NCBI GenBank assembly: GCA_964651245.1
Contig: CAZYVI010000008.1
Span: 51,437-115,436 of the forward strand
Origin: an uncultured Anaerolineales bacterium
GTDB taxonomy: Bacteria > Chloroflexota > Anaerolineae > Epilineales > Epilineaceae
Length of the DNA stretch: 64,000 bases
Reading direction: 5' to 3'
The notes beneath the pieces were generated by a model. It ran no database searches, was not told the DNA's origin, and was given only the letters and a program-made list of their open reading frames with translations. Both the position numbers and the translations under genes were made by a program. Shown piece by piece: positions 13,556-54,272 of this stretch; positions within the stretch are counted from its first letter, which is position 1, and each line of letters starts with the position of its first letter.

Positions 13556-15625
13556 ATGTCCGAGACCCACGACGGCCATGCGGCGCACCGCCGGCCGGAG
13601 CGCGCTGCGGCGCGGGTGCCGCACGCCCACCACGACATGGCCGATGCCCGCTCCGCCGCGGCGATGGAGGCGGACATGCGCCGCCGCTTCTGGATCGCGC
13701 TTGCCCTGGGCATCCCGGCGATCGCCTACACCCCGATGGTCGGCCACGCGCTCGGACTCCGGCTGCCGACGCCGTTCGGTTTCCCGGCCGACTGGATGTC
13801 GCTGGCCTTCGCAACGCCCGTCGCGCTCTGGGCGAGCTCGGTGTTCCATGTGGGCGCGTGGCGGTCCGTCCGCTCGGGCGTCCTGAACATGAGCGTCCTC
13901 GTCTCGCTCGGCATCCTCGTCAGCTATCTGTTCAGCCTCGGCCTGACGTTCCTCGCTCCCGGCCAGGAGACGTTCTACGAAGCGGCCGTCATGCTCGCCG
14001 TCTTTCTCCTTTTCGGCCACTGGATGGAGATGCGCGCCCGCCGTGGCAGCACGGACGCCGTACGGCTGCTGCTCGACATGGCGCCCCAGCAGGCCACCGT
14101 CGATCGCGACGGCCGTCTCGAGACCGTGCCCGTCGGCGAGGTCGTCGTCGGCGACGTCCTCGTCCTGCGGCCGGGGGACAAGGTCGCCGTCGACGGCGAG
14201 GTCCTCGACGGCGAGACCGCGATCGACGAGTCCATGATCACGGGCGAGTCGCTGCCCGTGGCGAAGGCGGCGGGCGACACCGTCATCGCCGGCACGATCG
14301 GCCAGTCCGGCGCCGTCCGCTACCGCGCGACGAAGGTCGGCGGTGCGACGGCGCTGGCGCAGATCGTGGCGATGGTCGAGCGGGCGCAGAACTCGAAGGC
14401 GCCGGCTCAACGCCTGGCGGACCGCGCCGCCCACTACCTCGTGCTCCTCGCCGTCGGTTCGGGGCTGGCGACGTTCGCGGTGTGGACGCTCGTCGCCGGC
14501 GAGCCGCTGCTCACGGCGCTCACGTTCGCCGTCTCGGCTGTGGTCATCGCCTGCCCCGACGCGCTGGGCCTGGCCACGCCGACGGCGGTCATGGTGGCCA
14601 CCGACCTCGGCGCCAAGCACGGCGTGCTGTTCAAGGAGGCCGTGTCCCTCGAGCTCGCGGCCCGGATCGACGCCGTGATCATCGACAAGACCGGGACGCT
14701 GACCGAGGGACGGCCGCGCGTGACGGACGTCGTCGCCCTGCCGGGGCAGACCGAGGCCGACGTCCTCGCGCGCGCCGCGGCCGTCGAGCGCCGCAGCGGC
14801 CATCCCCTGTCGAAGGCGGTCCTCGACGAGGCCGAACGGCGGTCGCTCGACGTCCCGGCCGAGGTGGACGCCTTCGTCTCCATCGCCGGGCTCGGTGTCC
14901 GCGGCACCGTCGCGGGGCGCGACGTCCTCGTCGGCACGCTGCGCTTGTTCGAGCAGCACGGTATCGATGTCGCCGCCGTCGGCGAGGCCGCGGAACGGCT
15001 CCTGGCGGAGGGCAAGACGCTCATGCTCGTGGCCTTCGACGGCCGCGCCGCCGGGGTCATCGCCGCCACGGATCCGGTTCGGCCGACGGCCCGCGCCGCC
15101 GTCGACGGGCTGAAGGCGCTCGGCATCGACGTCGTCATGATGACGGGCGACAACCGTCACACGGCCGAGGCCGTGGCCAAGCAGGTCGAGATCGACCGCG
15201 TGGTGGCCGAGGTCCTGCCGGCGGACAAGGCCGGCGAGGTCGCCCGCCTGCAGGCCGAGGGACGGTTCGTGGCGATGGTCGGCGACGGCGTGAACGACGC
15301 GCCGGCGCTGGCGCAGGCCGAACTCGGCATCGCCATCGGCGCCGGCACCGACGTCGCGGTCGAGGCCGGCGACATCGTCCTCATGCGCTCCGACCCAGCC
15401 GACATCCTGCGGGCGATCAAGCTGTCCAAGGCGACCGTCACGAAGATGCGCCAGAACCTGTTCTGGGCCGCCATCTACAACGTGGTGGCGATCCCGATCG
15501 CGGCCGGCGTGTTCTACCGCTCGCTCGGGATCATGCTGCGTCCGGAGTTCGGCGCGCTGGCGATGTCGGCCAGCTCGATCACCGTCGTGAGCAACGCCCT
15601 CCTGCTGCGGCGGGCGAAACTCTAG
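13556..15625 (+). CDS. P1B-type heavy-metal (copper) ATPase, CopB-like, with His-rich N-terminus and CPD motif
   Basis: GGGAGG RBS and ATG 13556. Motifs TGES, IACPDALG, DKTGT, TGDN, GDGVNDAP, IYN and MSASS. Confidence 0.93.
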   Translation: MSETHDGHAAHRRPERAAARVPHAHHDMADARSAAAMEADMRRRFWIALALGIPAIAYTPMVGHALGLRLPTPFGFPADWMSLAFATPVALWASSVFHVGAWRSVRSGVLNMSVLVSLGILVSYLFSLGLTFLAPGQETFYEAAVMLAVFLLFGHWMEMRARRGSTDAVRLLLDMAPQQATVDRDGRLETVPVGEVVVGDVLVLRPGDKVAVDGEVLDGETAIDESMITGESLPVAKAAGDTVIAGTIGQSGAVRYRATKVGGATALAQIVAMVERAQNSKAPAQRLADRAAHYLVLLAVGSGLATFAVWTLVAGEPLLTALTFAVSAVVIACPDALGLATPTAVMVATDLGAKHGVLFKEAVSLELAARIDAVIIDKTGTLTEGRPRVTDVVALPGQTEADVLARAAAVERRSGHPLSKAVLDEAERRSLDVPAEVDAFVSIAGLGVRGTVAGRDVLVGTLRLFEQHGIDVAAVGEAAERLLAEGKTLMLVAFDGRAAGVIAATDPVRPTARAAVDGLKALGIDVVMMTGDNRHTAEAVAKQVEIDRVVAEVLPADKAGEVARLQAEGRFVAMVGDGVNDAPALAQAELGIAIGAGTDVAVEAGDIVLMRSDPADILRAIKLSKATVTKMRQNLFWAAIYNVVAIPIAAGVFYRSLGIMLRPEFGALAMSASSITVVSNALLLRRAKL
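15446..15585 (+). repeat. 140-bp exact direct repeat, copy 1 (3' end of the ATPase gene)
   Basis: ATGCGCCAGAACCTG...TCGATCACCGT is identical to 18003-18142 on base-by-base reading. Confidence 0.92.
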
Positions 15626-15657
15626 GACGTCGTCACGCCGCCGTGACAACGTCCTAG
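15622..15657. terminator. 16-bp stem hairpin overlapping the ATPase stop codon
   Basis: CTAGGACGTCGTCACG-ccgc-CGTGACAACGTCCTAG (one mismatch). There is no U-tract. Confidence 0.5.
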
Positions 15658-15767
15658 GGACGATGGAACGGGCATGCGTCTGGGTTGCCCCTGGCTCGGC
15701 CGCGCCGGTGACGCAACGCGCAGGCCCGCCGATCAAGGGAAGGCGAACGGCGACAGGAGGCCGAGTC

Positions 15768-17429
15768 ATGAAGGTCAACCGCCATCCCGCGATTCCCGCG
15801 TCTGCCGCCGCCGTCGCCGTTGTCGCGGCCGCCGCGCTGCGCCTTGGCCCGGCGATGCCGGTGTGGGCGCCGGCGCCACCTGTCCGCGCGCAGGGCGCGA
15901 CCATCTCCATCCGCATCGACACGGCCGCGCGCCACCAGGTGATGGAGGGCTTCGGCGCCACGACGATGCCGCTCGTGTACGGCGACGTCGACCCGCTGCC
16001 GCCGGCGCTGCGCAAGCAGGCGATCGAGGCGCTGTACCGAGACATCGGCGTGCGGACGGGGAACGTCGAGCAGGCGGTCCTCGAGAGCCCCGGCGACTAC
16101 GGCGCGCGGCGAAACGACAACGACGACCCGTTCGTCATCGACCCGGCCGGCTTCCAGTCGGACGGCCTGCGGCGCACCCGCGACAAGCTGCTCGCCGACG
16201 CGTTCGCCCTCGGCTTCGACGGCTACCTGGCCCAGAAGGTGAACGTCCGCTGGGCCAGCCCGTGGCTCGCGGCGATCCGCACGCGCGACCGCCGCCGCTA
16301 CCTGGACGAGGCGGCCGAGCAGGTGCTGGTCGGCGCGCGGGCCTGGCGCGACGTCGTCGGGCGGGCGCCAACGCTCATCCATCTGTTCAACGAGCCGACG
16401 AGCGGCAACGGCGAACTGCAAGGGGGCGACCCGGCCGAGATCGTCGACCTCATCATCGCCTGCGGTGACCGTCTGAAGGCAAATGGCTTTCCCGACGTGC
16501 GCTTCGTCGTGCCCAGCGAGGAGACGGAGCGGCGCTCGCTCGCGGTCATGCGGGCGATCACGGCCAACCCGGCCGCGCGCGCCTACGTCGGGGCGCTGGG
16601 CTACCACCCCTACCCGTACGGCTCGACGTACGCCTCGGTGCCGAACATCCTGCGCACGTCGGGCGATGGCAAGCCCGATCCGGCGGCCGTCGCGGTGCGC
16701 GACGAGCTGCGGGGCGTGGCCCAGGCGGCCGGCCTGCCGCTGTGGATGACGGAGGTCTCGCACGGCGAGCTCGACCCGCGCTCGTTCGATTCGCTGCGCG
16801 GCCGCGCCGTCCACATCCACGACGAGCTGACGTACGCCGACGCCTCGGCGTACTTCGGGATGAACAACATGTGGGACACGTGGTCCCATTCCGAGCACTT
16901 CAAGGGTCGCCAGGACGGCGGCCTCTATTCGGAGGCGGACACGCTCGTCCTCATCGACCTCGACCTCAACAAGGTGGTCATCACCGGCATGGGCTACGCG
17001 ATCGGCCACTGGGCGCGCTTCCTGCCGCGGGGCAGCGTGCGCGTCGAGGCGACGTCGGGCGACCCGCTCGTCCAGGTCACGGCGTTCCTCGACGAGCCGG
17101 CCGGCCGCCTCGTCCTCGTGGCGATCAACAACGACCACGACCCGCGCCCGATCGTCGTGGACGAGGCAGGCGCGGCATTGACCGGAGCCCTGGATGGCAT
17201 CCGGTCGATGGTCGACGTGCGCTGGGCGCCGCTCGACCCCGTGCCGGCCGCTCCGGGGGGCGGCTTCGCCGACGTGCTGCCAGGGCGGAGCGTGACGACG
17301 TACGTCGGGTCGATCGGCACCGCGGTCGGCCCGGAGCCGGCGCCTGGTGCGACGCCATCGCCCTCGCACCTCGCTCCGCCGACGTCATCCCATCGCCTGT
17401 TCGTCCCCGAAGCGCGCCGCTTCCCGTAG
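15768..17429 (+). CDS. Secreted GH30-like (clan GH-A) glycoside hydrolase
   Basis: AGGAGG RBS. Motifs QVMEGFGA, LFNEP (acid/base) and LWMTE (nucleophile). Pro/Thr tail ending RLFVPEARRFP. Confidence 0.8.
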   Translation: MKVNRHPAIPASAAAVAVVAAAALRLGPAMPVWAPAPPVRAQGATISIRIDTAARHQVMEGFGATTMPLVYGDVDPLPPALRKQAIEALYRDIGVRTGNVEQAVLESPGDYGARRNDNDDPFVIDPAGFQSDGLRRTRDKLLADAFALGFDGYLAQKVNVRWASPWLAAIRTRDRRRYLDEAAEQVLVGARAWRDVVGRAPTLIHLFNEPTSGNGELQGGDPAEIVDLIIACGDRLKANGFPDVRFVVPSEETERRSLAVMRAITANPAARAYVGALGYHPYPYGSTYASVPNILRTSGDGKPDPAAVAVRDELRGVAQAAGLPLWMTEVSHGELDPRSFDSLRGRAVHIHDELTYADASAYFGMNNMWDTWSHSEHFKGRQDGGLYSEADTLVLIDLDLNKVVITGMGYAIGHWARFLPRGSVRVEATSGDPLVQVTAFLDEPAGRLVLVAINNDHDPRPIVVDEAGAALTGALDGIRSMVDVRWAPLDPVPAAPGGGFADVLPGRSVTTYVGSIGTAVGPEPAPGATPSPSHLAPPTSSHRLFVPEARRFP

Positions 17430-46899: not shown

Positions 46900-48174
46900 T
46901 CATGGCCCGCACCCCCTCGCCCGCTCCAGCAACAGCGCCCGCTCGCGCCCGTTGCGCGTCATCCCCGCCGCCCGCTCGAATGCGGCGCGCGCCTCGTCGA
47001 AGCGGCCGAGCTTGGCCAATAGGTCGCCGCGGACGGCGGGGAGGAGGTGGTAGCCGTCGAGCGCGCCGCTGGCCGCGAGGTCATCGGCGATCCTCAGGCC
47101 CTCGGCCGGGCCGAACGCCATTGCCACCGCCACGGCGCGGTTCAGTTCGACGACGGGAGACGGCGCCAGCTGGGTGAGGGCGTCGTAGAGGGCGGCGATG
47201 CGGGGCCAGTCGGTGTCTTCGGCGCGGGCGGCGCGGGCGTGGCAGGCGGCGATGGCGGCCTGCAGCGCGTACGGCCCGAGCGCGCCGCCCAGCGCCTCGG
47301 CGCGGGCCAGCGCGGCGAGGCCGCGGCGGATCAGGAGCGGGTCCCAGCGGGCGCGGTTCTGGTCGAGCAGGAGAACCGGCTCGCCGGTCGAGCCGACGCG
47401 GGCGTGGGCGCGGGATGCTTGGATCTCGAGGAGGGCGACGAGGCCATGGACTTCGGGCTCGCCTGGCGCAAGGCCGGCCAGGACGCGGCCCAGCCGCAGC
47501 GCCTCGTCGCACAGCGCGGGCCGGAGCCAGTCGTCGCCGGCGGTGGCGGCGTAGCCCTCGTTGAAGATGAGGTAGATCACCTCGAGCACCGACGCCAGGC
47601 GGTCGGCGCGGTCGGCGCCGCGCGGCGTCTCGAACGGCACCCGCGCCTCGGCCAACGTCCGCTTGGCCCGCACGATCCGCTGCGCCACCGTCGATTCGGC
47701 GACGAGGAAGGCGCGGGCGATCTCGTCCGTCGTCAGGCCGCCCAACAGGCGCAGCGTCAGCGCGACGCGCGCCTCGCGCGACAGCACCGGGTGGCAGGCG
47801 ATGAAGACGAGCCGCAGCAGGTCGTCGCCGACGTCGTCGCCGGCGTCGGGCGCCGGCATTTCGCCGTGGTCGGCGGCCGACGCGTCGTGCTCCGCCGCGA
47901 GATCGCGGGCGATCGTCGCGACCTTGTCGTCGTGGCGCTGGCGGCGCCGCAGCTGGTCGATCGCCTTGTGCTTGGCCGCCGCCATGAGCCAGGCGCCCGG
48001 GTTGGCCGGAATCCCCGCTGCCGGCCACTGCTGCAGCGCCGCGACGAGCGCGTCCTGCGCCAGGTCTTCGGCCAGACCGACATCGCCGGCGAAGCGCGCC
48101 AGGCCGGCGATGACCCGCGCCGACTCGATGCGCCAGACGGCGTCGATGGCGCGGTGGGTGGCTTCGATCGTCAC
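46900..48174 (-). CDS. ECF42-type sigma factor with C-terminal TPR-like extension
   Basis: Likely GTG start at 48174. Motifs AEDLAQDA, NPGAWL, DDLLRLVFIACHP, QRIVRAKRTL, YLIFNEGY and LNRAVA. Confidence 0.88.
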   Translation of the reverse strand: MTIEATHRAIDAVWRIESARVIAGLARFAGDVGLAEDLAQDALVAALQQWPAAGIPANPGAWLMAAAKHKAIDQLRRRQRHDDKVATIARDLAAEHDASAADHGEMPAPDAGDDVGDDLLRLVFIACHPVLSREARVALTLRLLGGLTTDEIARAFLVAESTVAQRIVRAKRTLAEARVPFETPRGADRADRLASVLEVIYLIFNEGYAATAGDDWLRPALCDEALRLGRVLAGLAPGEPEVHGLVALLEIQASRAHARVGSTGEPVLLLDQNRARWDPLLIRRGLAALARAEALGGALGPYALQAAIAACHARAARAEDTDWPRIAALYDALTQLAPSPVVELNRAVAVAMAFGPAEGLRIADDLAASGALDGYHLLPAVRGDLLAKLGRFDEARAAFERAAGMTRNGRERALLLERARGCGP

Positions 48175-48293
48175 CGCTCGATCATCACACATCCGGCCGT
48201 GACCGTCATGTTGCACCTGGCAGTCCGTCGCGACCCGCGCGAGGCGATCCGCGCGACCGACCCGGGCGACCGCCGGCTACGATGACGCGCCGT

Positions 48294-49163
48294 CTATCGT
48301 GCCACCCGGCCAAGTGGCCACCCGGCCAGTGGCTCAGCGCGCAAGTACTCCTGGTATGTCCGCTCGCGCGCCGTCCTCCGCCACCAGCCGTACTGGATCG
48401 CCATGAGCGGGCCGAGGACGACCATCACCGGGAAGATGGGCAGCTGCACGCCCAGCAACGGCAGCGCGATGAGGCCGCCGATCGCGCCGAGCCCGAGGAC
48501 CAGCGCCGTGAGGCCCGCCCGGCGGCCGAACGCCTTGCGCAGCACCAGCGGAAAGACCGCGGCCATCAGCTGGTCGCCGAGGCCGATGGCGGCGAGCGCG
48601 CCGGGCTCCGCGGTGACCGGCCACATCGTGATCGGCGCGAACGGGCGGCCCTGGAGGGTCGTGAACAGGTGGCCCATGTGCGGCAGGAGCGTCGTGGCCG
48701 TGACGTCGTAAGCGATGAGCAGGCCGCCGAGCAGCGCGGCGTCGCGGGCGCGCATCCCGCTCTGGGCCCAGAGGTTGGCGGCGCCGATGACGGTGACGAC
48801 GAGGACGGCGTTGTTGGCGGCCAGGAACGCGGGATCGGCCGGACCGAGGCGCGTCGCGGCGAGGACGCCGGCGATGCACGCCGCGCTCGCCAGCCAGATC
48901 CATACCCGCCCCCGCAGCACCGGCTCGAACGTCAGGTACAGGATCCCCAGCGTGCCCAACGTCAGGACGCCGATCCCGATCGCCTCGCTCACGCGCAGAT
49001 AGAACATCGGGACCAGGACGATGGCCGTCATCATGAACGCCAGGTCGGCCCCGTTCATCAACCCGATGGGCGGACGTACGACGCGATAACGCCGAAAATA
49101 CGCCCACGCTCCACCGGCCGCGGCGACGACGAAGCCATAGACGACGCACGACGCGGCGGCCAT
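48294..49163 (-). CDS. Presenilin/signal-peptide-peptidase-like GxGD intramembrane aspartyl protease
   Basis: Multi-TM protein with IAYD-x8-HM (48705-48710), AIGLGD (48573-48584) and a PAL-like FPVM. The ATG overlaps the ligase stop (TGATG). Confidence 0.75.
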   Translation of the reverse strand: MAAASCVVYGFVVAAAGGAWAYFRRYRVVRPPIGLMNGADLAFMMTAIVLVPMFYLRVSEAIGIGVLTLGTLGILYLTFEPVLRGRVWIWLASAACIAGVLAATRLGPADPAFLAANNAVLVVTVIGAANLWAQSGMRARDAALLGGLLIAYDVTATTLLPHMGHLFTTLQGRPFAPITMWPVTAEPGALAAIGLGDQLMAAVFPLVLRKAFGRRAGLTALVLGLGAIGGLIALPLLGVQLPIFPVMVVLGPLMAIQYGWWRRTARERTYQEYLRAEPLAGWPLGRVAR

Positions 49164-50644
49164 CAGAACGTGGCCTCGCGCAGGTCGCAGCGCATCGGCA
49201 GCGGTTGCCGCAGCGCATCGCGGTGTTCGGCCAAGTGAAGCGACGTGAGCGGCACGCCCTGCGCCTCCAGCGCCGCGGCGACCACCCGGCGGTCGGCATC
49301 GCCCTGGCCGCGGGTGACGACCTCGACCGCCACGCCGTCGCCGTCCGCCCAGAAGCCGCACCGGGCCGGCAGCGGCACGATCGGCAGCGCTTCGAGCGCC
49401 TCGAGGACATCGCGCGGCGTCGTCCAGCCGGCGGCGTGGCGCACGGCGAAGCGGCGCTTGCCGAGGAGGTCGCTCGTCGCCGGCATGTGGCGGAGACTGC
49501 AATCGAGCGGCCCCGCGACGGCCGTCACGAGGTCCTCGGTGTTGTAGCGCAGCGTGACCATGGCCTCGCGGTACGGCGCGAAGGGTGTGGCGACGAGGAC
49601 GCCGAGCTCGCCGGGTGCGGCGGGGCGGGGGATGGGCGACGCGTCGTCACCGGCGTCGCCAACCGCTCCGCCCTCGGGCAGGCTGTCGATGGCGACGACC
49701 TCGACGAGGCCGTGCCCCGGATCCCAGTGGAGGTGCCCGGCCTCGCACCGGACGGCGCCCAGCGGCCAGGTCTCGGTCATGCCGAAGCCCTCGACGAGCC
49801 GGACGTCGCCGAACGTTTCCCGCGCCCGGCGGCGCAAGCCGTCGGTCACGATCTCGCCGCCCACCGAGAGGGTGGCCAGGCCGAAGTCGGCAGGCCCCAT
49901 CCCGGCCGCCGCGGCGGTTTCGACGAGCTCGCCCAGATAGGAGCTGTACGTGTTGAGGTAGCTGGCGCGCGCCTTCCGGTCTGGCAGTCCGTGCGTCTCG
50001 GTCAGCAGGCGCAGCCCGATCTCGGGCGCCACGAGCCCGGCCTGATACCATACCGCGCCGATCCGCTCGATCGCCCGCGAGAAGTACTGGTTGCCGAGCG
50101 TCGCGCGCGAGCTCGTGCTGACCTGCACGACATCGTCCGGCAGGATGCTACCGCGCTGGAGGAACGTCAGCGCGTTCAGCAGCACGACGGCCTCGACTTC
50201 GTGGGCGGTGAAGTAGGTGTGCGTCGGCCGCCCGGTCGTGCCGGTCGTCGTCGTCCGGAAGGCCGGCGGTGCGCCGCGCCGCACGAACGCCTCGGGCGCC
50301 GCGCGCATCGCCGCCTTGGGTGTCAGCGGCAGGCGGGCGATGTCGTCCCACGTCAGGTGGCCGGGCTGGACGCCGGCGGCGTGGAGCACCGGACCGTAGT
50401 ACGACGTCTCGTCCCGGCCGCGCCGGGCCATGGCGCGAAAGCGCCGCAGTTGCAGATCGCGCCGCATCGCCTCGTCCAGCGGCGGCCCGGATAGCGCCGC
50501 GTCGGCATCGTCCCCAAGCAACCCGAATTTGCGGCGCGTGCTGACGAGCCCCTCGACGAGCGCGGACAAGGCGCGCGTCGAGATCGGCGCGCCGAACAGG
50601 AGCGACGCGGCGTGGCGGAGTTGGGCGACGGCGACTTCGATCAT
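49163..50644 (-). CDS. PaaK/phenylacetate-CoA-ligase-like adenylate-forming enzyme
   Basis: PLTPK, TTGTTGRP (P-loop), VGGE, FGMTE and LRYNTEDL. Confidence 0.85.
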   Translation of the reverse strand: MIEVAVAQLRHAASLLFGAPISTRALSALVEGLVSTRRKFGLLGDDADAALSGPPLDEAMRRDLQLRRFRAMARRGRDETSYYGPVLHAAGVQPGHLTWDDIARLPLTPKAAMRAAPEAFVRRGAPPAFRTTTTGTTGRPTHTYFTAHEVEAVVLLNALTFLQRGSILPDDVVQVSTSSRATLGNQYFSRAIERIGAVWYQAGLVAPEIGLRLLTETHGLPDRKARASYLNTYSSYLGELVETAAAAGMGPADFGLATLSVGGEIVTDGLRRRARETFGDVRLVEGFGMTETWPLGAVRCEAGHLHWDPGHGLVEVVAIDSLPEGGAVGDAGDDASPIPRPAAPGELGVLVATPFAPYREAMVTLRYNTEDLVTAVAGPLDCSLRHMPATSDLLGKRRFAVRHAAGWTTPRDVLEALEALPIVPLPARCGFWADGDGVAVEVVTRGQGDADRRVVAAALEAQGVPLTSLHLAEHRDALRQPLPMRCDLREATF

Positions 50645-50701
50645 GGGGGGCGTCTCGCATCACACGTGCACAGCGGTCGGGAGTCGGCGCCGTGTCAGAC
50701 A

Positions 50702-50751
50702 GCGCGAAGCCCCAGACAGCCCGCGCTGCGGACCCGTCTGGGGCTTCGCGC
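50702..50751. terminator. Perfect 16-bp stem-loop between the small peptide ORF and the ligase
   Basis: GCGCGAAGCCCCAGAC-N18-GTCTGGGGCTTCGCGC. Confidence 0.65.
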
Positions 50752-50823
50752 CGTCGGCCGCTACCGGGTTCAACGTGGCGACGGTGGCCACGTCGGGTGT
50801 TGGGTAGGCGGTCGTCGGTGCGG

Positions 50824-50910
50824 TTACTGCAACACGAGGCCGACGCCGAAGCCGACGTTGGCGATGGAAGCGGCGGCGTAACGGACAAAGGTCAGGGCGG
50901 TGCGGATCAT
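50824..50910 (-). CDS. Unannotated 28-aa peptide (candidate precursor/signal peptide)
   Basis: AGGAGAG-7nt-ATG; MIRTALTFVRYAAASIANVGFGVGLVLQ-TAA. It is too short for the ORF track. Confidence 0.7.
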   Translation of the reverse strand: MIRTALTFVRYAAASIANVGFGVGLVLQ

Positions 50911-51060: not shown

Positions 51061-53712
51061 TCACACCGCGTCGGCCGGACCCCCCCGCAGGCGCGCGCGG
51101 CCCCAGCCGGCGATCTCGCGCCGGTTGCCGAGGCCGAGCTTGGCCAGGATGTTAGAGACGTGCTTCTCGACGGCCTTCACGCTCACGGCCATTCGCTCGG
51201 CGATCTCGCGGTTCGTCAGGCCGTGGGTGATCCAGAGGGCGACCTCAAGTTCGCGCGGCGAGAGGCCGCTGTCGTCCGTCGCCGACAGGAGCGGCTCGCC
51301 GGCTCCGTGCGGCGGGGCGGCCGCGGACGGGGCGAGGGTCGCGGGGTGGCTGCGATCGCCTGGCCCTGCACCCGTCTCGGACAGGCGCGCCGCCACGGCC
51401 AGGGCTTCGGCCACGGCTCCCTTGAGGTCGAGCGCCACACCGGTCGCCCAGGCGGACTCGAAGGCGAAGCGGCCGAGTGCGGACCGGAGCGCCGCGATCT
51501 GGTCCTGCTGCAGACGCCGTTCGTGCGGGATCGACACCGTGCCGGTCGATTCCAGCGCCTGGATGCCGGCTGCCGTGAGCCGGGTAGCCACCTTGAGGTC
51601 GTCGATGGAAGGGGGCACTTGCGACGTCATCGTGCGCGGCGGGGTGTTCGGGCCGCCGAACGGACGGAGGACGGGCGTGCCGGCAAGCGAGGCGACGACG
51701 AGCAAGGCGAAGCCGATGGCCTCGGGATCCTCGTGCTCGGCGTGGATCTGCAGGCATGCGTGGACCGTTCGAGCCGCAGACGCGATCTGGCCATCGATGT
51801 GGTCCAGCGTGGCCAAGCCCATCCGACATGTCGCGACGGCGTAGCGAAACTCGACGGCGGCGAATCGCTCAATGGCCTGATCCAGCATCGACCGGGCGTC
51901 CGCGAACCGGCCGGCCAAGAGGGCAACGGCCGACAGAAAGAGACAGCTCCGGCCGACTTCAACGTCGTCGCCGCACTGGCGCGCCAGCACCAACGCTTCG
52001 TCCAGCTCGCTGCGAGCGCGTTTCAGGTCGCCGTCGTGGTACCAGCACAAGCCCCGGCTGTTCGCGGCGGCCACGACATCCCGCGGGCTGCCGCCCGCAC
52101 GTCCGTGTTCGAAGGCTCGGGTGAAGTGGTCGCGGGCAAGGGCATGTTCGCCACGTCCGCAGGCGATGTTTCCCAGATCTCGACAGATTTGCGCGCCGCT
52201 AGCGTGATCGCCATCCGGACCGATCAGGTCCATGGCCGCAGACAAGTGCGACGCTGCCGCCTCATGCTCCATGCGGAACTGCGCGAACAGGCCCAGCGTC
52301 CGATGCGCCTGCGCCCGGTCCATGGGCGCACCCAGTCCTGTTGCCAGCGCCTGCTCCATCCATCGGCGGCCTTCCGTCACGAACAGCTCCCGCAGCCAGA
52401 ACCGACGGAGGCCGACGGCCAGCCGTACGCCCGCAATGCCGTCGTTGCCCGAGTCCAGGCTCCACTCCAGGGCCGCCCGCAGGTTGGCCTGATCGGCGAA
52501 GAGCGCGGCCCGCGCCTCAACGAGGTCGCTTCCTGTGCCCATCAGGTGGGGCTCCAGCCGTTCGACCAGACGCACAAGATACCAGGCATGCGCCCGTTGC
52601 AGCGCCCCAAAGTCACCCGACGCGCGAAGCTTCTCGCGGGCGAAGGCGTGCAGCACTTCGAGCAACCCAAAGCGCGCCACGCCCGCCACCTCGCTTGTGG
52701 ATCGGACGAGGCTCTTGGCGATGAGCCCGTCGAGCGCATCCAAGATGCCGTCGACGGCTAAGACACCGCCGCCACTTGCCGATTCGCCGTTCGCCGCGCC
52801 GCACACGGCCTCGACCGCCTCGAGCGTGAAGCCGCCGTTGAACACGCCCAGCCGCCGGAAGAGGATCTGCTCGGCCTCCGAGAGCAGGTCGTAGCTCCAC
52901 TGCATCGTCGCCGCCAGGCTGCGGTGGCGCTCCGGGCGATCGACGGCGGCGCCGCCGAGCAGGGATAGCCGCTCGTCCACCCGCTGTAGCATGGCCGCCG
53001 GGCTGAGGACGCGCGCCCGGCCGGCCGCCAACTCGAGCGCCAGCGGCAGCCCGTCCAGTTGCCGGCAGAGCTCGACCGTGGCCCGCACGTTCCCTTCGCC
53101 GAGCACGAACGACGGATCGACGGCCTGCGCCCGATCGACGAAGAGGCCGACGGCCGGGTAGCGCCCGATCGCCGGCAGCAGTTCGCCCAGCGGTCGGTCG
53201 CCGAGCTGGTCCAGGTTCGGGAGCGGCAACGGCTCGACAGGCCAGCGCCGCTCGCCGCGCAAGCCGAGCACGGTGCGGCTGGTCACGAGGATCTTGAGCC
53301 CTGGGCAGCACTCGACGAGGGTTGACACTACCGGCGCGGCGTCCGTTACTTGCTCGAAGTTGTCGAGGATAAGGAGCATCGACCGGTCGCCGATCGCTGC
53401 GGCGAGAGCGCCGGCGAGTGCGGGACCGCGCTCCGCGGCAACGCCGAGCACCTCGGCGATGGCCGGGGCGACGAGGTCGGGTACGGTGATCGCGGCCAGT
53501 TCGACGAACCAGACGCCGTCGCTGAAGACGTCGAGAACGTCGTGCGCCACGGCCAAGGCGAGCCGCGTCTTGCCGATGCCGCCCGGGCCGGTGAGGGTCA
53601 GCAGGCCGGAATTGTCGTCGGTGAGCGCCGCCCGGAGGCGCTCGCGGTCGCCCTCTCGGCCGAATAGGGTCGTCCGGTCGATGTGCAGGTTGTGGGTTGC
53701 GTTGACGCCCAC
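51061..53712 (-). CDS. STAND ATPase-TPR-LuxR HTH transcriptional regulator
   Basis: Walker A GPGGIGKT, Walker B LLILDNFEQ, CRQLDGLPLALELA, TPR-like region, and C-terminal LSPRELEV...NREIA...VEKHVSNILAKLG. Confidence 0.93.
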   Translation of the reverse strand: MGVNATHNLHIDRTTLFGREGDRERLRAALTDDNSGLLTLTGPGGIGKTRLALAVAHDVLDVFSDGVWFVELAAITVPDLVAPAIAEVLGVAAERGPALAGALAAAIGDRSMLLILDNFEQVTDAAPVVSTLVECCPGLKILVTSRTVLGLRGERRWPVEPLPLPNLDQLGDRPLGELLPAIGRYPAVGLFVDRAQAVDPSFVLGEGNVRATVELCRQLDGLPLALELAAGRARVLSPAAMLQRVDERLSLLGGAAVDRPERHRSLAATMQWSYDLLSEAEQILFRRLGVFNGGFTLEAVEAVCGAANGESASGGGVLAVDGILDALDGLIAKSLVRSTSEVAGVARFGLLEVLHAFAREKLRASGDFGALQRAHAWYLVRLVERLEPHLMGTGSDLVEARAALFADQANLRAALEWSLDSGNDGIAGVRLAVGLRRFWLRELFVTEGRRWMEQALATGLGAPMDRAQAHRTLGLFAQFRMEHEAAASHLSAAMDLIGPDGDHASGAQICRDLGNIACGRGEHALARDHFTRAFEHGRAGGSPRDVVAAANSRGLCWYHDGDLKRARSELDEALVLARQCGDDVEVGRSCLFLSAVALLAGRFADARSMLDQAIERFAAVEFRYAVATCRMGLATLDHIDGQIASAARTVHACLQIHAEHEDPEAIGFALLVVASLAGTPVLRPFGGPNTPPRTMTSQVPPSIDDLKVATRLTAAGIQALESTGTVSIPHERRLQQDQIAALRSALGRFAFESAWATGVALDLKGAVAEALAVAARLSETGAGPGDRSHPATLAPSAAAPPHGAGEPLLSATDDSGLSPRELEVALWITHGLTNREIAERMAVSVKAVEKHVSNILAKLGLGNRREIAGWGRARLRGGPADAV

Positions 53713-53840: not shown

Positions 53841-54272
53841 CTACACCCCCTGCTGCGCCTCCACCTGCGCCCGCAGCCGCTCCTCTTGGGCCTGCAGCTC
53901 CGGCGTGTACTCGGCGCCGAAGTCCTCAGCCTCGAAGACCGGTCGGATCTCGATCACCGAGTCCTCGAGCATCGGGTTCGGGCAGCGCTTGACCCACTCG
54001 ATCGCCTCGTCCATCGAGCGCACCTGCCACAGCCAGAAGCCCGCCACGAGCTCCTTGGTCTCGGCGAACGGGCCGTCGACGACGGTCCGCTTGGGGCCCG
54101 AGAACAGGACGCGGGCGCCCTTCGAGCTCGGGTGGAGCCCTTCGCCGGCCAGCATGATGCCGGCCTTCACCAGCGCCTCGTTGTAGTTGCCCATGTCGGT
54201 CATCAGCTGCTCGCTGGGCATGACGCCCGCCTCGCTGTCGGCCGTGGCCTTGACGATCACCATCACGCGCAT
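53841..54272 (-). CDS. YCII-related DGPF-domain protein
   Basis: GEGLHPSS, VVDGPFAETKELVAGFW and IEIRP; AGGAG RBS. Confidence 0.93.
   Translation of the reverse strand: MRVMVIVKATADSEAGVMPSEQLMTDMGNYNEALVKAGIMLAGEGLHPSSKGARVLFSGPKRTVVDGPFAETKELVAGFWLWQVRSMDEAIEWVKRCPNPMLEDSVIEIRPVFEAEDFGAEYTPELQAQEERLRAQVEAQQGV

Follow-up and report, generated by a model that had tools for sequence, protein, structure and literature searches.

A highly divergent presenilin-fold intramembrane protease predicted in bacteria and encoded with an adenylate-forming ligase and tiny hypervariable-tail peptides

The stretch of DNA analysed here, called the window throughout, comprises 64,000 nucleotides from an uncultured Anaerolineales bacterium (contig CAZYVI010000008.1, positions 51,437 to 115,436), and all coordinates below are counted from its first letter. 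On its minus strand, at 48294..49163, lies an open reading frame (ORF) of 289 codons, whose 289-residue product is predicted, from the ORF itself, an AlphaFold2 model, Foldseek, the family alignment and hhalign, to be a GxGD aspartyl intramembrane protease of the presenilin/SPP fold that belongs to a new bacterial family. Because this gene is always found with a PaaK-like ligase and with tiny peptide genes that have hypervariable tails, the protease probably matures short secreted peptides. With moderate confidence, we favour the interpretation that the ORF encodes a catalytically competent di-aspartyl protease of a divergent branch of the A22 proteases, and that it matures the co-encoded precursors of 22-29 residues together with the ligase. 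The putative catalytic pair would be formed by D153 (YD motif, transmembrane (TM) helix 6) and D197 (GLGD, TM7), with P245 of an FPVM motif in the PAL position. What the analysis shows is the fold of the model, how far the motifs are conserved and in register, the gene linkage, and a precursor family with its variation; that the enzyme is active, which substrate it takes, where it cuts, how it lies in the membrane, what the ligase does chemically and what the system is for, we infer from these comparisons.

The protease gene and its start

A single base is common to the protease ATG at 49163 and the TGA stop of the ligase gene before it (TGATG), in DNA with a G+C content of 70-78% throughout the window. 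A public protein collection holds the same protein as a 254-residue entry that starts at Met36 and thereby loses TM helix 1 (window 49056-49163). Since Y22, R30 and G34 are invariant among relatives, and since the longer frame makes the TGATG overlap with the ligase gene, the 289-residue protein has the correct start and the 254-residue version is too short.

The motif strings quoted in the first-pass annotation of this DNA were all found in the minus-strand translation of the ORF, namely IAYDVTATTLLPHM (residues 150-163, nt 48675-48716), PITMWP (residues 177-182, nt 48618-48635), AIGLGDQLM (residues 192-200) and a late FPVM (F244-P-V-M247, 48423..48434). The first putative catalytic aspartate is encoded within the Y152-D153 codons (48705..48710) and the second within those of G194-L-G-D197 (48573..48584), all on the minus strand.

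Predicted fold and proposed kinship with A22 proteases

The window protease has no Pfam or NCBIfam match at E <= 1, and 30 members of its family matched none of the Pfam A22 models PF01080, PF04258 and PF06550 even at E <= 10; a search of the PDB by sequence, with the single protein or with a 30-sequence profile, likewise gave no relevant match. The AlphaFold2 model, built on a 30-sequence alignment, reached a predicted local distance difference test (pLDDT) score of 92.1 and a predicted template modelling (pTM) score of 0.90. It contains nine long TM helices; helices 6 and 7 are separated by a short helix and a beta-hairpin, whose DSSP strands are 178-182 and 190-194. The YD motif lies within helix 6 (139-159), GLGD opens helix 7 (195-212), and FPVM stands just ahead of helix 9. 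The codons of the hairpin, which is predicted to be extracytoplasmic and runs into GLGD, occupy 48582..48632 on the minus strand.

When this model was compared with the PDB by Foldseek, the top 15 matches were all A22 proteases (SPPL2a, PS1 and PSH; probability 1.00, TM-scores 0.49-0.64). Human SPPL2a came first (9k93; E 1e-4, TM-scores 0.62/0.64), and the others included presenilin-1 from a dozen gamma-secretase entries (0.53-0.58) and the archaeal PSH (4hyg and 4hyc; 0.52/0.61). From match 16 on, whose TM-score is 0.14, no value exceeds 0.22. Since all of the top 15 are presenilin-family proteases, the outcome named beforehand as a refutation, an unrelated predicted fold, did not occur, and the A22 presenilin/SPP-like identity proposed in the first-pass annotation is largely supported.

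Sequence profiles point the same way. The reference sequences were checked against the PDB (PS1 agrees with 5a63_B at 467 of 467 residues, PSH with 4hyc_A at 300 of 301), and the PSH profile was built from homologues all carrying PF06550. With profiles of 20-30 sequences, the sole hhalign alignment places Y152-D153 on PSH Y161-D162 and G194-L-G-D197 on PSH G217-M-G-D220 (E 0.0092). With 203 family and 116 PSH sequences, it extends over 205 columns (E 0.0017) and brings YD, GxGD and FPVM into one register, F244-P245-V-M falling on PSH L275-P276-P-L at the PAL position. At the sequence level this register is corroboration rather than proof of kinship with PSH; three motifs in one register on top of the fold match are, however, what a distant homology would lead one to expect. 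The protease family is a new, highly divergent A22 branch that is no A22 member by curated-database criteria. It is not described in the full-text literature searched, and neither Pfam (2025) nor NCBIfam (June 2026) has an annotation for it.

A24 enzymes, the prepilin and preflagellin peptidases, also have a GxGD motif and are, as is generally known, common in bacteria. One of them, FlaK, is listed as a GxGD protease (PMC4985597). The window protease, however, has nine TM helices, a YD motif and a proline in the PAL position, a combination that A24 enzymes lack, and no pilin or flagellin genes lie nearby. None of the 50 Foldseek matches listed is an A24 peptidase (FlaK or other), and no Pfam Peptidase_A24 match was obtained at E <= 10 among the 30 members. 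An A24-type enzyme, from which the protease had already been told apart on its motifs, was accordingly rejected, and we regard this assignment as having next to no chance of being correct.

Conservation of the putative catalytic motifs

In A22 proteases (MEROPS clan AD), the catalytic aspartates lie in a YD motif in TM6 and a GxGD motif in the adjacent TM7 (PMC2947513). We evaluated the corresponding positions in 203 near-full-length members, including the distant Streptomyces/Kitasatospora subfamily. Y152 is kept in 95% of them (F in a further 4%), D153 in 98% (199/203), G194 in 99%, G196 in 95%, D197 in 98%, P245 in 98.5% and P252 in 97.5%. M247 is found in 92% and is replaced by L in the Streptomyces/Kitasatospora subfamily, giving F-P-L-L. 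The proline of the PAL position is present; the literal P-A-L sequence is absent from both forms. Conservation of 95-99% at Y152, D153, G194, G196, D197 and P245 means that the YD, GxGD and PAL-like motifs picked out in the single window sequence are not there by chance. The resemblance to the archaeal YD-x8-HM and GxGDxxM patterns, which had also been pointed out, is real for PSH (VYD-AISVYRTK-HM and GMGDLIM in 4hyc) but does not extend to the family as a whole: H162 is variable, position 163 is M in 63% and T in 33% of members, and position 200, the M of GLGDxxM, is L in 61%.

Further conserved motifs, specific to this family, lie on the predicted cytoplasmic side: YFRRYxVxRPPIGV after TM1, NLWAQSGMxARD between TM5 and TM6, RKAFGR after TM7 and ERTTWQYLxAEP at the C-terminus. 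The unusual conservation of these cytoplasmic loops and of the C-terminal tail, above all NLWAQSGMxARD and ERTTWQYLxAEP, suggests a partner-binding surface, and could be taken to mean that the protein has a presenilin fold and is no protease at all, acting as a channel, an exporter or a scaffold for the ligase while the peptide is cut by another enzyme or remains uncut. The cassette described below has no transporter, so an export function must reside somewhere, which also suits this idea. On the other hand, both aspartates in their motif context and the PAL-position proline are kept at about 98% among members that are only 33-55% identical, which is the pattern of a catalytic site, and the SPPL2a and PS1 structures among the top matches include inhibitor-bound active-site states. 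We therefore hold a non-proteolytic function to be improbable, and a working protease remains the preferred interpretation.

The family itself is sizeable. A word-indexed search gave at least 214 clusters at 90% identity, and an exhaustive profile search of metagenomes gave 583 representative clusters at 50% identity (E <= 1e-3), the best 150 of these 583 matches all falling inside the protease family.

A cassette shared by two phyla

Loci were collected from the contigs of four relatives and by scanning 185,579 species genomes, in which 46 were found; this yielded 49 non-redundant loci including the window. In Chloroflexota, they occur in Anaerolineae, Chloroflexia, Thermomicrobiales, Ktedonobacterales and Caldilineaceae. 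In Actinomycetota, they occur in Streptomyces, Kitasatospora, Actinomadura syzygii and Jatrophihabitans, and also in Acidimicrobiia, Rubrobacteraceae, Solirubrobacterales and Nitriliruptorales; one Brocadiaceae metagenome-assembled genome (MAG) carries a protease locus as well. A ligase of about 490 residues is encoded immediately upstream of the protease in all 48 non-redundant loci where this region is visible, with a gap of 1-16 nt or an overlap in loci other than the window. In 42 of the 49 loci, a hidden Markov model (HMM) of the precursor peptides, described below, detects a copy on the protease strand no more than 4 kb away from the protease gene; the other seven are on truncated contigs, or have the precursor on the opposite strand or further off. 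The gene order is peptide-ligase-protease in Chloroflexota, the window included, and in the Streptomyces/Kitasatospora subfamily, and ligase-protease-peptide in most other Actinomycetota.

All-against-all clustering of the ORFs from the 49 loci showed just two universal protein families, the protease and the ligase, and revealed no conserved transporter, immunity gene or second modifying enzyme; pilin genes were also absent from these loci. The composition is that of a cassette for a ribosomally synthesised and post-translationally modified peptide (RiPP), with a short precursor consisting of a conserved leader and a variable part beside a modifying-type enzyme and a candidate leader protease. 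The first-pass annotation had linked the protease to a small operon with a 28-residue peptide, and the co-occurrence of peptide, ligase and protease across two phyla bears this out. We found no described counterpart of the peptide-ligase-protease cassette in Pfam 2025, in NCBIfam of June 2026 or in the full-text literature searched.

This distribution also bears on whether the protease is a housekeeping signal-peptide peptidase, or a membrane quality-control protease, that stands beside the other two genes incidentally. Its orientation would be of the SPP type (see below), and eukaryotic relatives clear signal peptides (PMC2947513). Against such a role, the linkage to the ligase (48/48) and to the precursor (42/49) is kept across Chloroflexota, Actinomycetota and the one Brocadiaceae MAG, and only 46 loci were found in 185,579 species genomes. 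The same rarity and the same linkage fit an accessory cassette rather than a core function, and we consider a housekeeping role very improbable.

Precursor peptides with hypervariable tails

The window precursor, encoded at 50824..50910 on the minus strand, is a peptide of 28 residues, MIRTALTFVRYAAASIANVGF|GVGLVLQ, in which the bar separates leader from variable tail; its ATG is preceded by AGGAG 9 nt upstream. Pfam and NCBIfam scans of the peptide gave no match. When the HMM is trained on 18 peptides taken from other loci, the window peptide is recovered at E 5e-7, as the only significant match among the 1070 small ORFs of the 64-kb window (next E 9.5).

Members of the precursor family are 22-29 residues long and occur in up to seven tandem copies. 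They share a leader of the form ..RYxRYALxxLxxVGF, followed by a hypervariable tail of 4-8 residues, constraint on which is limited to its length and its final residue. The general pattern is a basic N-terminus (MKK, MLK, MTR or MIR), a helix-like leader ending in (V/I/A)-(G/A)-(F/Y/M) and then an abrupt change to the tail, as in the precursor of locus L001, MKAIIKYARYALASLATIGFKLSSN. In Streptomyces, Kitasatospora and Jatrophihabitans (L040-L050), the precursors are 22 residues long (MVKHYLKYALSTLSAAMF followed by AHMA, LHMV, MHMS or VHNS), lie about 1.6-2.3 kb upstream of the protease and hold a conserved His in their four-residue tails; the proteases of these loci are 33-39% identical to that of the window and have FPLL in place of FPVM. 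In other Actinomycetota, where the peptide gene comes last, tails such as AACKST, AVYKSS, AAKTS and GAHGAT are found.

Tandem arrays, with AGGAG before every unit, are present in L004 (5406-6281, seven copies), L003 (9032-9871, five copies located downstream of the protease) and L005 (6231-6527, three copies). The seven L004 units, spaced at 127-150 nt, share the leader MKKLT(I/F/L/V)(R/H)YIRYALALLAN(V/I)G(F/Y) and end in KLTAN, MGGAN, AIYAN, QIYAN, LSGTN, KLSLN and GLSLN. Pairwise nucleotide identity among these repeats is 0.88 in the leader (0.81 at third codon positions), 0.90 in the Asn-plus-stop codons and 0.41-0.55 in the non-coding spacers, and it drops to 0.29, essentially random, across the four tail codons that vary. 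Every tail has five residues, and all copies end in the same Asn codon. Because the tails diverge faster than the spacers while keeping their length and end residue, diversifying selection on a product, and not decay, is indicated. The precursor is a real, selected gene family. The small ORF was also considered as an upstream ORF controlling an attenuator, and this was rejected, since the peptide gene lies downstream of the protease in most Actinomycetota; arrays of up to seven copies and amino-acid conservation across phyla speak against it as well.

The PaaK-like ligase

The gene that overlaps the protease start and is translationally coupled to the protease gene (49163..50644, minus strand) encodes a 493-residue adenylate-forming enzyme of the PaaK family. 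By sequence, its PDB matches are the phenylacetate-CoA (coenzyme A) ligases 4r1l (E 6e-16) and 2y4o (4e-10), and also AjiA1 and NatL2-type ligases, and weak NCBIfam matches are to PaaK, the DVU_1553-type ligase and BagE/FevW; database names are 'phenylacetate-CoA ligase' or 'AMP-binding protein'. The AlphaFold2 model (pLDDT 87) has BT_0428, PaaK1, AjiA1, NatL2, HCL and ClxA as Foldseek neighbours (TM-scores 0.6-0.77; 0.67/0.77 for PaaK1). Conserved features include the P-loop TTTGTTGRPT, a GYGMTE motif and the invariant K396. Its relatives include enzymes that form esters or amides independently of CoA (NatL2, AjiA1 and ClxA by fold, BagE/FevW by NCBIfam). About 55 extra residues at the N-terminus (window 50480-50644), folded as three helices in the model with a pLDDT of 57-88, are not present in PaaK and might contact either the leader peptide or the protease at its conserved cytoplasmic loops.

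Membrane orientation and a proposed route of maturation

Lysines and arginines were counted in the loops delimited by the model helices. At least 17 are found in loops 1-2, 3-4, 5-6 and 7-8 and the C-terminal tail, and three in the N-terminus and loops 2-3, 4-5, 6-7 and 8-9. By the positive-inside rule, this charge bias would put the C-terminus inside and leave the N-terminus outside, together with the hairpin-bearing loop between TM6 and TM7, so that the protease would have the orientation of SPP, opposite to that of presenilin. SPP, whose topology is indeed opposite to that of presenilin, cuts type II (N-in/C-out) segments (PMC2947513). In the model, D153 and D197 lie respectively about six and three residues from the outer ends of their helices. 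The inferred orientations of the two partners fit each other, since the enzyme would have loop 6-7 outside and the peptide would stand N-in/C-out.

We propose the following route. The ATP-dependent ligase would act on the precursor before cleavage, because it is cytoplasmic and uses ATP, and most likely at the C-terminal carboxylate, which is favoured because it is the only group common to all tails, because ligases of this class activate such a group, and because the last residue is constrained. The product could be an imide formed from Asn or Gln, a lactone formed from Ser or Thr, or a condensation with an external nucleophile, as with NatL2, AjiA1 and ClxA. The basic N-terminus would then hold the precursor N-in/C-out, like a type II substrate of SPP. 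The leader helix would enter the protease, and the short tail would pair as a beta-strand with the 178-194 hairpin, which by analogy is a candidate docking strand for it. Substrates of gamma-secretase lose their helix at the C-terminal end, and past the scissile bond they adopt a beta-strand, paired with the PS1 beta1 and beta2 strands flanking TM6 and TM7; short C-terminal peptides are freed (PMC7248309). Cleavage would occur at or near the boundary that follows (V/I/A)-(G/A)-(F/Y/M), that is F21|G22 in the window, and a peptide of 4-8 residues, probably modified at its C-terminus, would be released outside without a separate exporter. Since no conserved transporter accompanies the cassette, the protease is the sole candidate both for the leader peptidase and for the route out of the cell. 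The hypervariable tails, the arrays and the adjacent regulators described below suggest that the product is a signalling peptide, comparable to a pherotype, or another bioactive peptide.

It could also be argued that the other half of the precursor is the one that is used. The tail would then be a disposable cap, removed by the protease to expose ..VGF-COOH on the conserved 21-residue N-terminal peptide, which the ligase would join to an acceptor (CoA, an amine, a lipid or a protein) in a process-then-ligate logic like that of ubiquitin and Pup or of sortases. In favour of this, F, Y or M invariably precedes the boundary, and the leader shows strong conservation between phyla. The ligase falls in the phenylacetate-CoA ligase family and has relatives that activate arylacetic and aryl acids, and no constraint is apparent on the tail residues apart from the last. 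Nevertheless, the tail codons outpace the spacers in divergence at a fixed length and with a fixed last residue, the seven paralogues differ essentially only in their tails, and with the topology proposed above the new C-terminus would arise near the outer face of the membrane, away from the cytoplasmic ligase. We therefore judge a use of the N-terminal half unlikely, although less so than the other alternatives, and retain the tail as the probable product.

Intergenic hairpin, regulators and flanking genes

Between the precursor and ligase genes (50698..50755, minus strand), RNAfold predicts a nearly perfect RNA stem-loop of about 27 bp; the intergenic region has a folding energy of -100 kcal/mol (z -5.8), and none of 200 shuffled sequences was as stable. 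In most loci with the peptide gene upstream, a strong hairpin likewise occurs behind the last precursor gene. No U-tract terminator was found at the window hairpin, and U-tracts are present in some other loci (L008 and L051). The window stem-loop probably serves as an attenuator, or else as a 3' end that stabilises the precursor mRNA, and its position fits a separately abundant precursor transcript. A scan of the operon for consensus promoters and terminators found nothing, as expected because the DNA has a G+C content of 73%.

Directly upstream of the precursor gene (51061..53712, minus strand), an 883-residue STAND NTPase-TPR-LuxR regulator is encoded, with Pfam matches to GerE, TPR_12, TPR_MalT, AAA_16 and NB-ARC. 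Relatives of this regulator stand beside the cassette in about 14 of the 49 loci, typically adjoining the precursor gene, and NarL-type two-component pairs do so in four other loci. Judged by its position, the protein is probably the regulator of the cluster and possibly a sensor of the peptide; the arrangement is equally compatible with a TPR peptide receptor similar to those of the RRNPP type and with an ordinary cluster-situated activator, and a signalling role is put forward as a hypothesis. Some of the adjacent STAND-TPR regulators in other loci have a guanylate/adenylate cyclase domain, PF00211 (L004 1-4453; L005 11807-15109), an indication that the cassette may be tied to cyclic-nucleotide signalling in Chloroflexota.

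The block formed by the LuxR, peptide, ligase and protease genes is flanked in the window by a gene for an extracytoplasmic function (ECF) sigma factor with DUF6596 (46900-48216, minus strand) and by a YCII-domain gene (53841-54272, minus strand). The sigma factor gene begins 78 nt past the protease stop and is not conserved beside the cassette elsewhere. ECF sigma-DUF6596 and YCII genes are often direct neighbours in Actinomycetota, and the 5.5-kb LuxR-to-protease block may have been inserted between the two. L001, a Chloroflexia MAG, has a phage-type integrase and ORFs for reverse transcriptases like those of group II introns (RVT_1, Intron_maturas2, HNH) a few kb from the cassette (14080-16861), which hints that this neighbourhood is mobile.

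Weight of the evidence

Several observations weigh against the interpretation of the protease as an A22 enzyme that matures the co-encoded peptides. The homology to A22 proteases is argued from a predicted fold and from a weak profile-profile alignment, the hhalign probabilities of the alignments between the family and PSH are low (4-15%), and the family profile gave no meaningful hhalign alignment with the single PS1 or PSH sequence. Membrane insertion of the leader is uncertain, because its hydrophobic run after the last Arg is only about 11-13 residues long and it contains two Arg, so that it resembles an amphipathic helix more than a standard TM segment. A cytoplasmic ligase combined with an active site that faces outward forces the order of events proposed above. 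The C-terminal modification is the weakest link, as the tails cannot all be served by one side-chain cyclisation chemistry and their last residue is not universal (N or Q in Chloroflexota, S or T in most Actinomycetota, A, V, S or G in others). Finally, STAND-TPR regulators accompany only about 30% of the loci and are also common as ordinary cluster-situated regulators.

Taken to its full extent, the proposal would describe a new system, in which a presenilin-fold enzyme in the SPP orientation serves as both leader protease and exporter, the ligase modifies the C-terminus, and the resulting strain-specific signals are read by the STAND-TPR-LuxR protein. We put this complete version forward only tentatively, and consider it more doubtful than not.

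Comparison with known systems

Presenilin-type proteases are central to the biology of Alzheimer's disease and to membrane signalling. The window encodes a compact bacterial enzyme of 289 residues that would work without partner subunits, together with a candidate substrate that exists in the family in many natural variants of 22-29 residues, which would make helix recognition, helix unwinding and the measuring of short C-terminal products testable in a bacterial system. Cultivable strains of Streptomyces, Kitasatospora and Actinomadura carry the cassette, among them Streptomyces sp. NBC_00212 and Actinomadura syzygii GKU157, with the tails GAHGAT or GAHGST.

Among eukaryotic enzymes, the closest structural resemblance is to SPP and SPPL2a (A22B; 9k93, 9k92), with which the window protease shares nine TM helices, YD and GxGD, a proline motif before TM9 and a short spacing of 44 residues between the two Asp; like them, it would stand N-out/C-in, need no partner subunits and be expected to cut a type II substrate. 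It differs from them in being bacterial, in an identity of only about 14-16% in the structural alignment, in its lack of detection by PF04258, in the replacement of PAL by P-V-M or P-L-L, in its extra conserved cytoplasmic motifs and in its place within a three-gene cassette with an adenylating enzyme and mini-substrates of its own. PSH/MCMJR1 (PF06550; 4hyc, 4hyg) is, like the window protease, a prokaryotic stand-alone protease of the presenilin fold and similar in size (301 residues). The window protease shares YD-x8-HM and GxGDxxM with it, whereas both patterns vary across the bacterial family, and the window locus, unlike that of PSH, encodes a candidate substrate alongside the protease. 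We know of no natural substrate of PSH or of other prokaryotic presenilin relatives, and PSH has been studied with borrowed eukaryotic ones. If the complete version of our proposal were true, the window protease would be the first prokaryotic member of the presenilin family with a genetically defined natural substrate, and the ligase the first ANL enzyme to act on the C-terminus of a ribosomal peptide.

The likeness to PS1 of gamma-secretase (A22A; 6iyc, 6idf, 7c9i) lies in the fold and in the hairpin directly before GxGD, which matches the substrate-pairing strands of PS1 in position. The proposed release of a short C-terminal peptide is reminiscent of the tri- and tetrapeptides that gamma-secretase sets free (PMC7248309). 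In contrast to PS1, the window protease would have the opposite orientation and an N-in/C-out substrate, and it is without the large TM6-7 loop, a sign of endoproteolysis or the partners nicastrin, APH-1 and PEN-2.

The ligase shares fold and adenylation motif with the PaaK family (NatL2, AjiA1, ClxA, BagE/FevW) and differs from these enzymes in its N-terminal extension of about 55 residues, its diverged C-terminal domain and its obligatory pairing with a protease and a ribosomal peptide. No PaaK-family enzyme in a ribosomal peptide pathway was found in the literature searched.

Two peptide systems offer partial parallels. In the staphylococcal AgrB-AgrD system, the precursor is likewise small, starts with an amphipathic helix and contains a short core whose hypervariability distinguishes the pherotypes. 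Its gene adjoins that of a dedicated polytopic membrane peptidase, with no dedicated ABC exporter; AgrB is a cysteine-type enzyme that cyclises its product via an acyl-enzyme intermediate, and the sensor is a histidine kinase. The window cassette differs in having a di-aspartyl enzyme, which forms no covalent intermediate, and an ATP-dependent ligase; its product would come from the extreme C-terminus of the precursor, and its sensor, if any, would be a cytoplasmic STAND-TPR protein. In microcin C, the heptapeptide MccA, which ends in Asn, is adenylated by the E1/ThiF-like MccB, with neither a leader nor a membrane protease involved. The two systems are alike in a very short ribosomal peptide, a C-terminal Asn and an ATP-dependent enzyme able to activate the C-terminal carboxylate, although the cassette enzyme is of the ANL type and in many tails the final residue is S, T, A or G and not N. 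The cassette would offer a way of making very short modified peptides that is new and does without a dedicated exporter.

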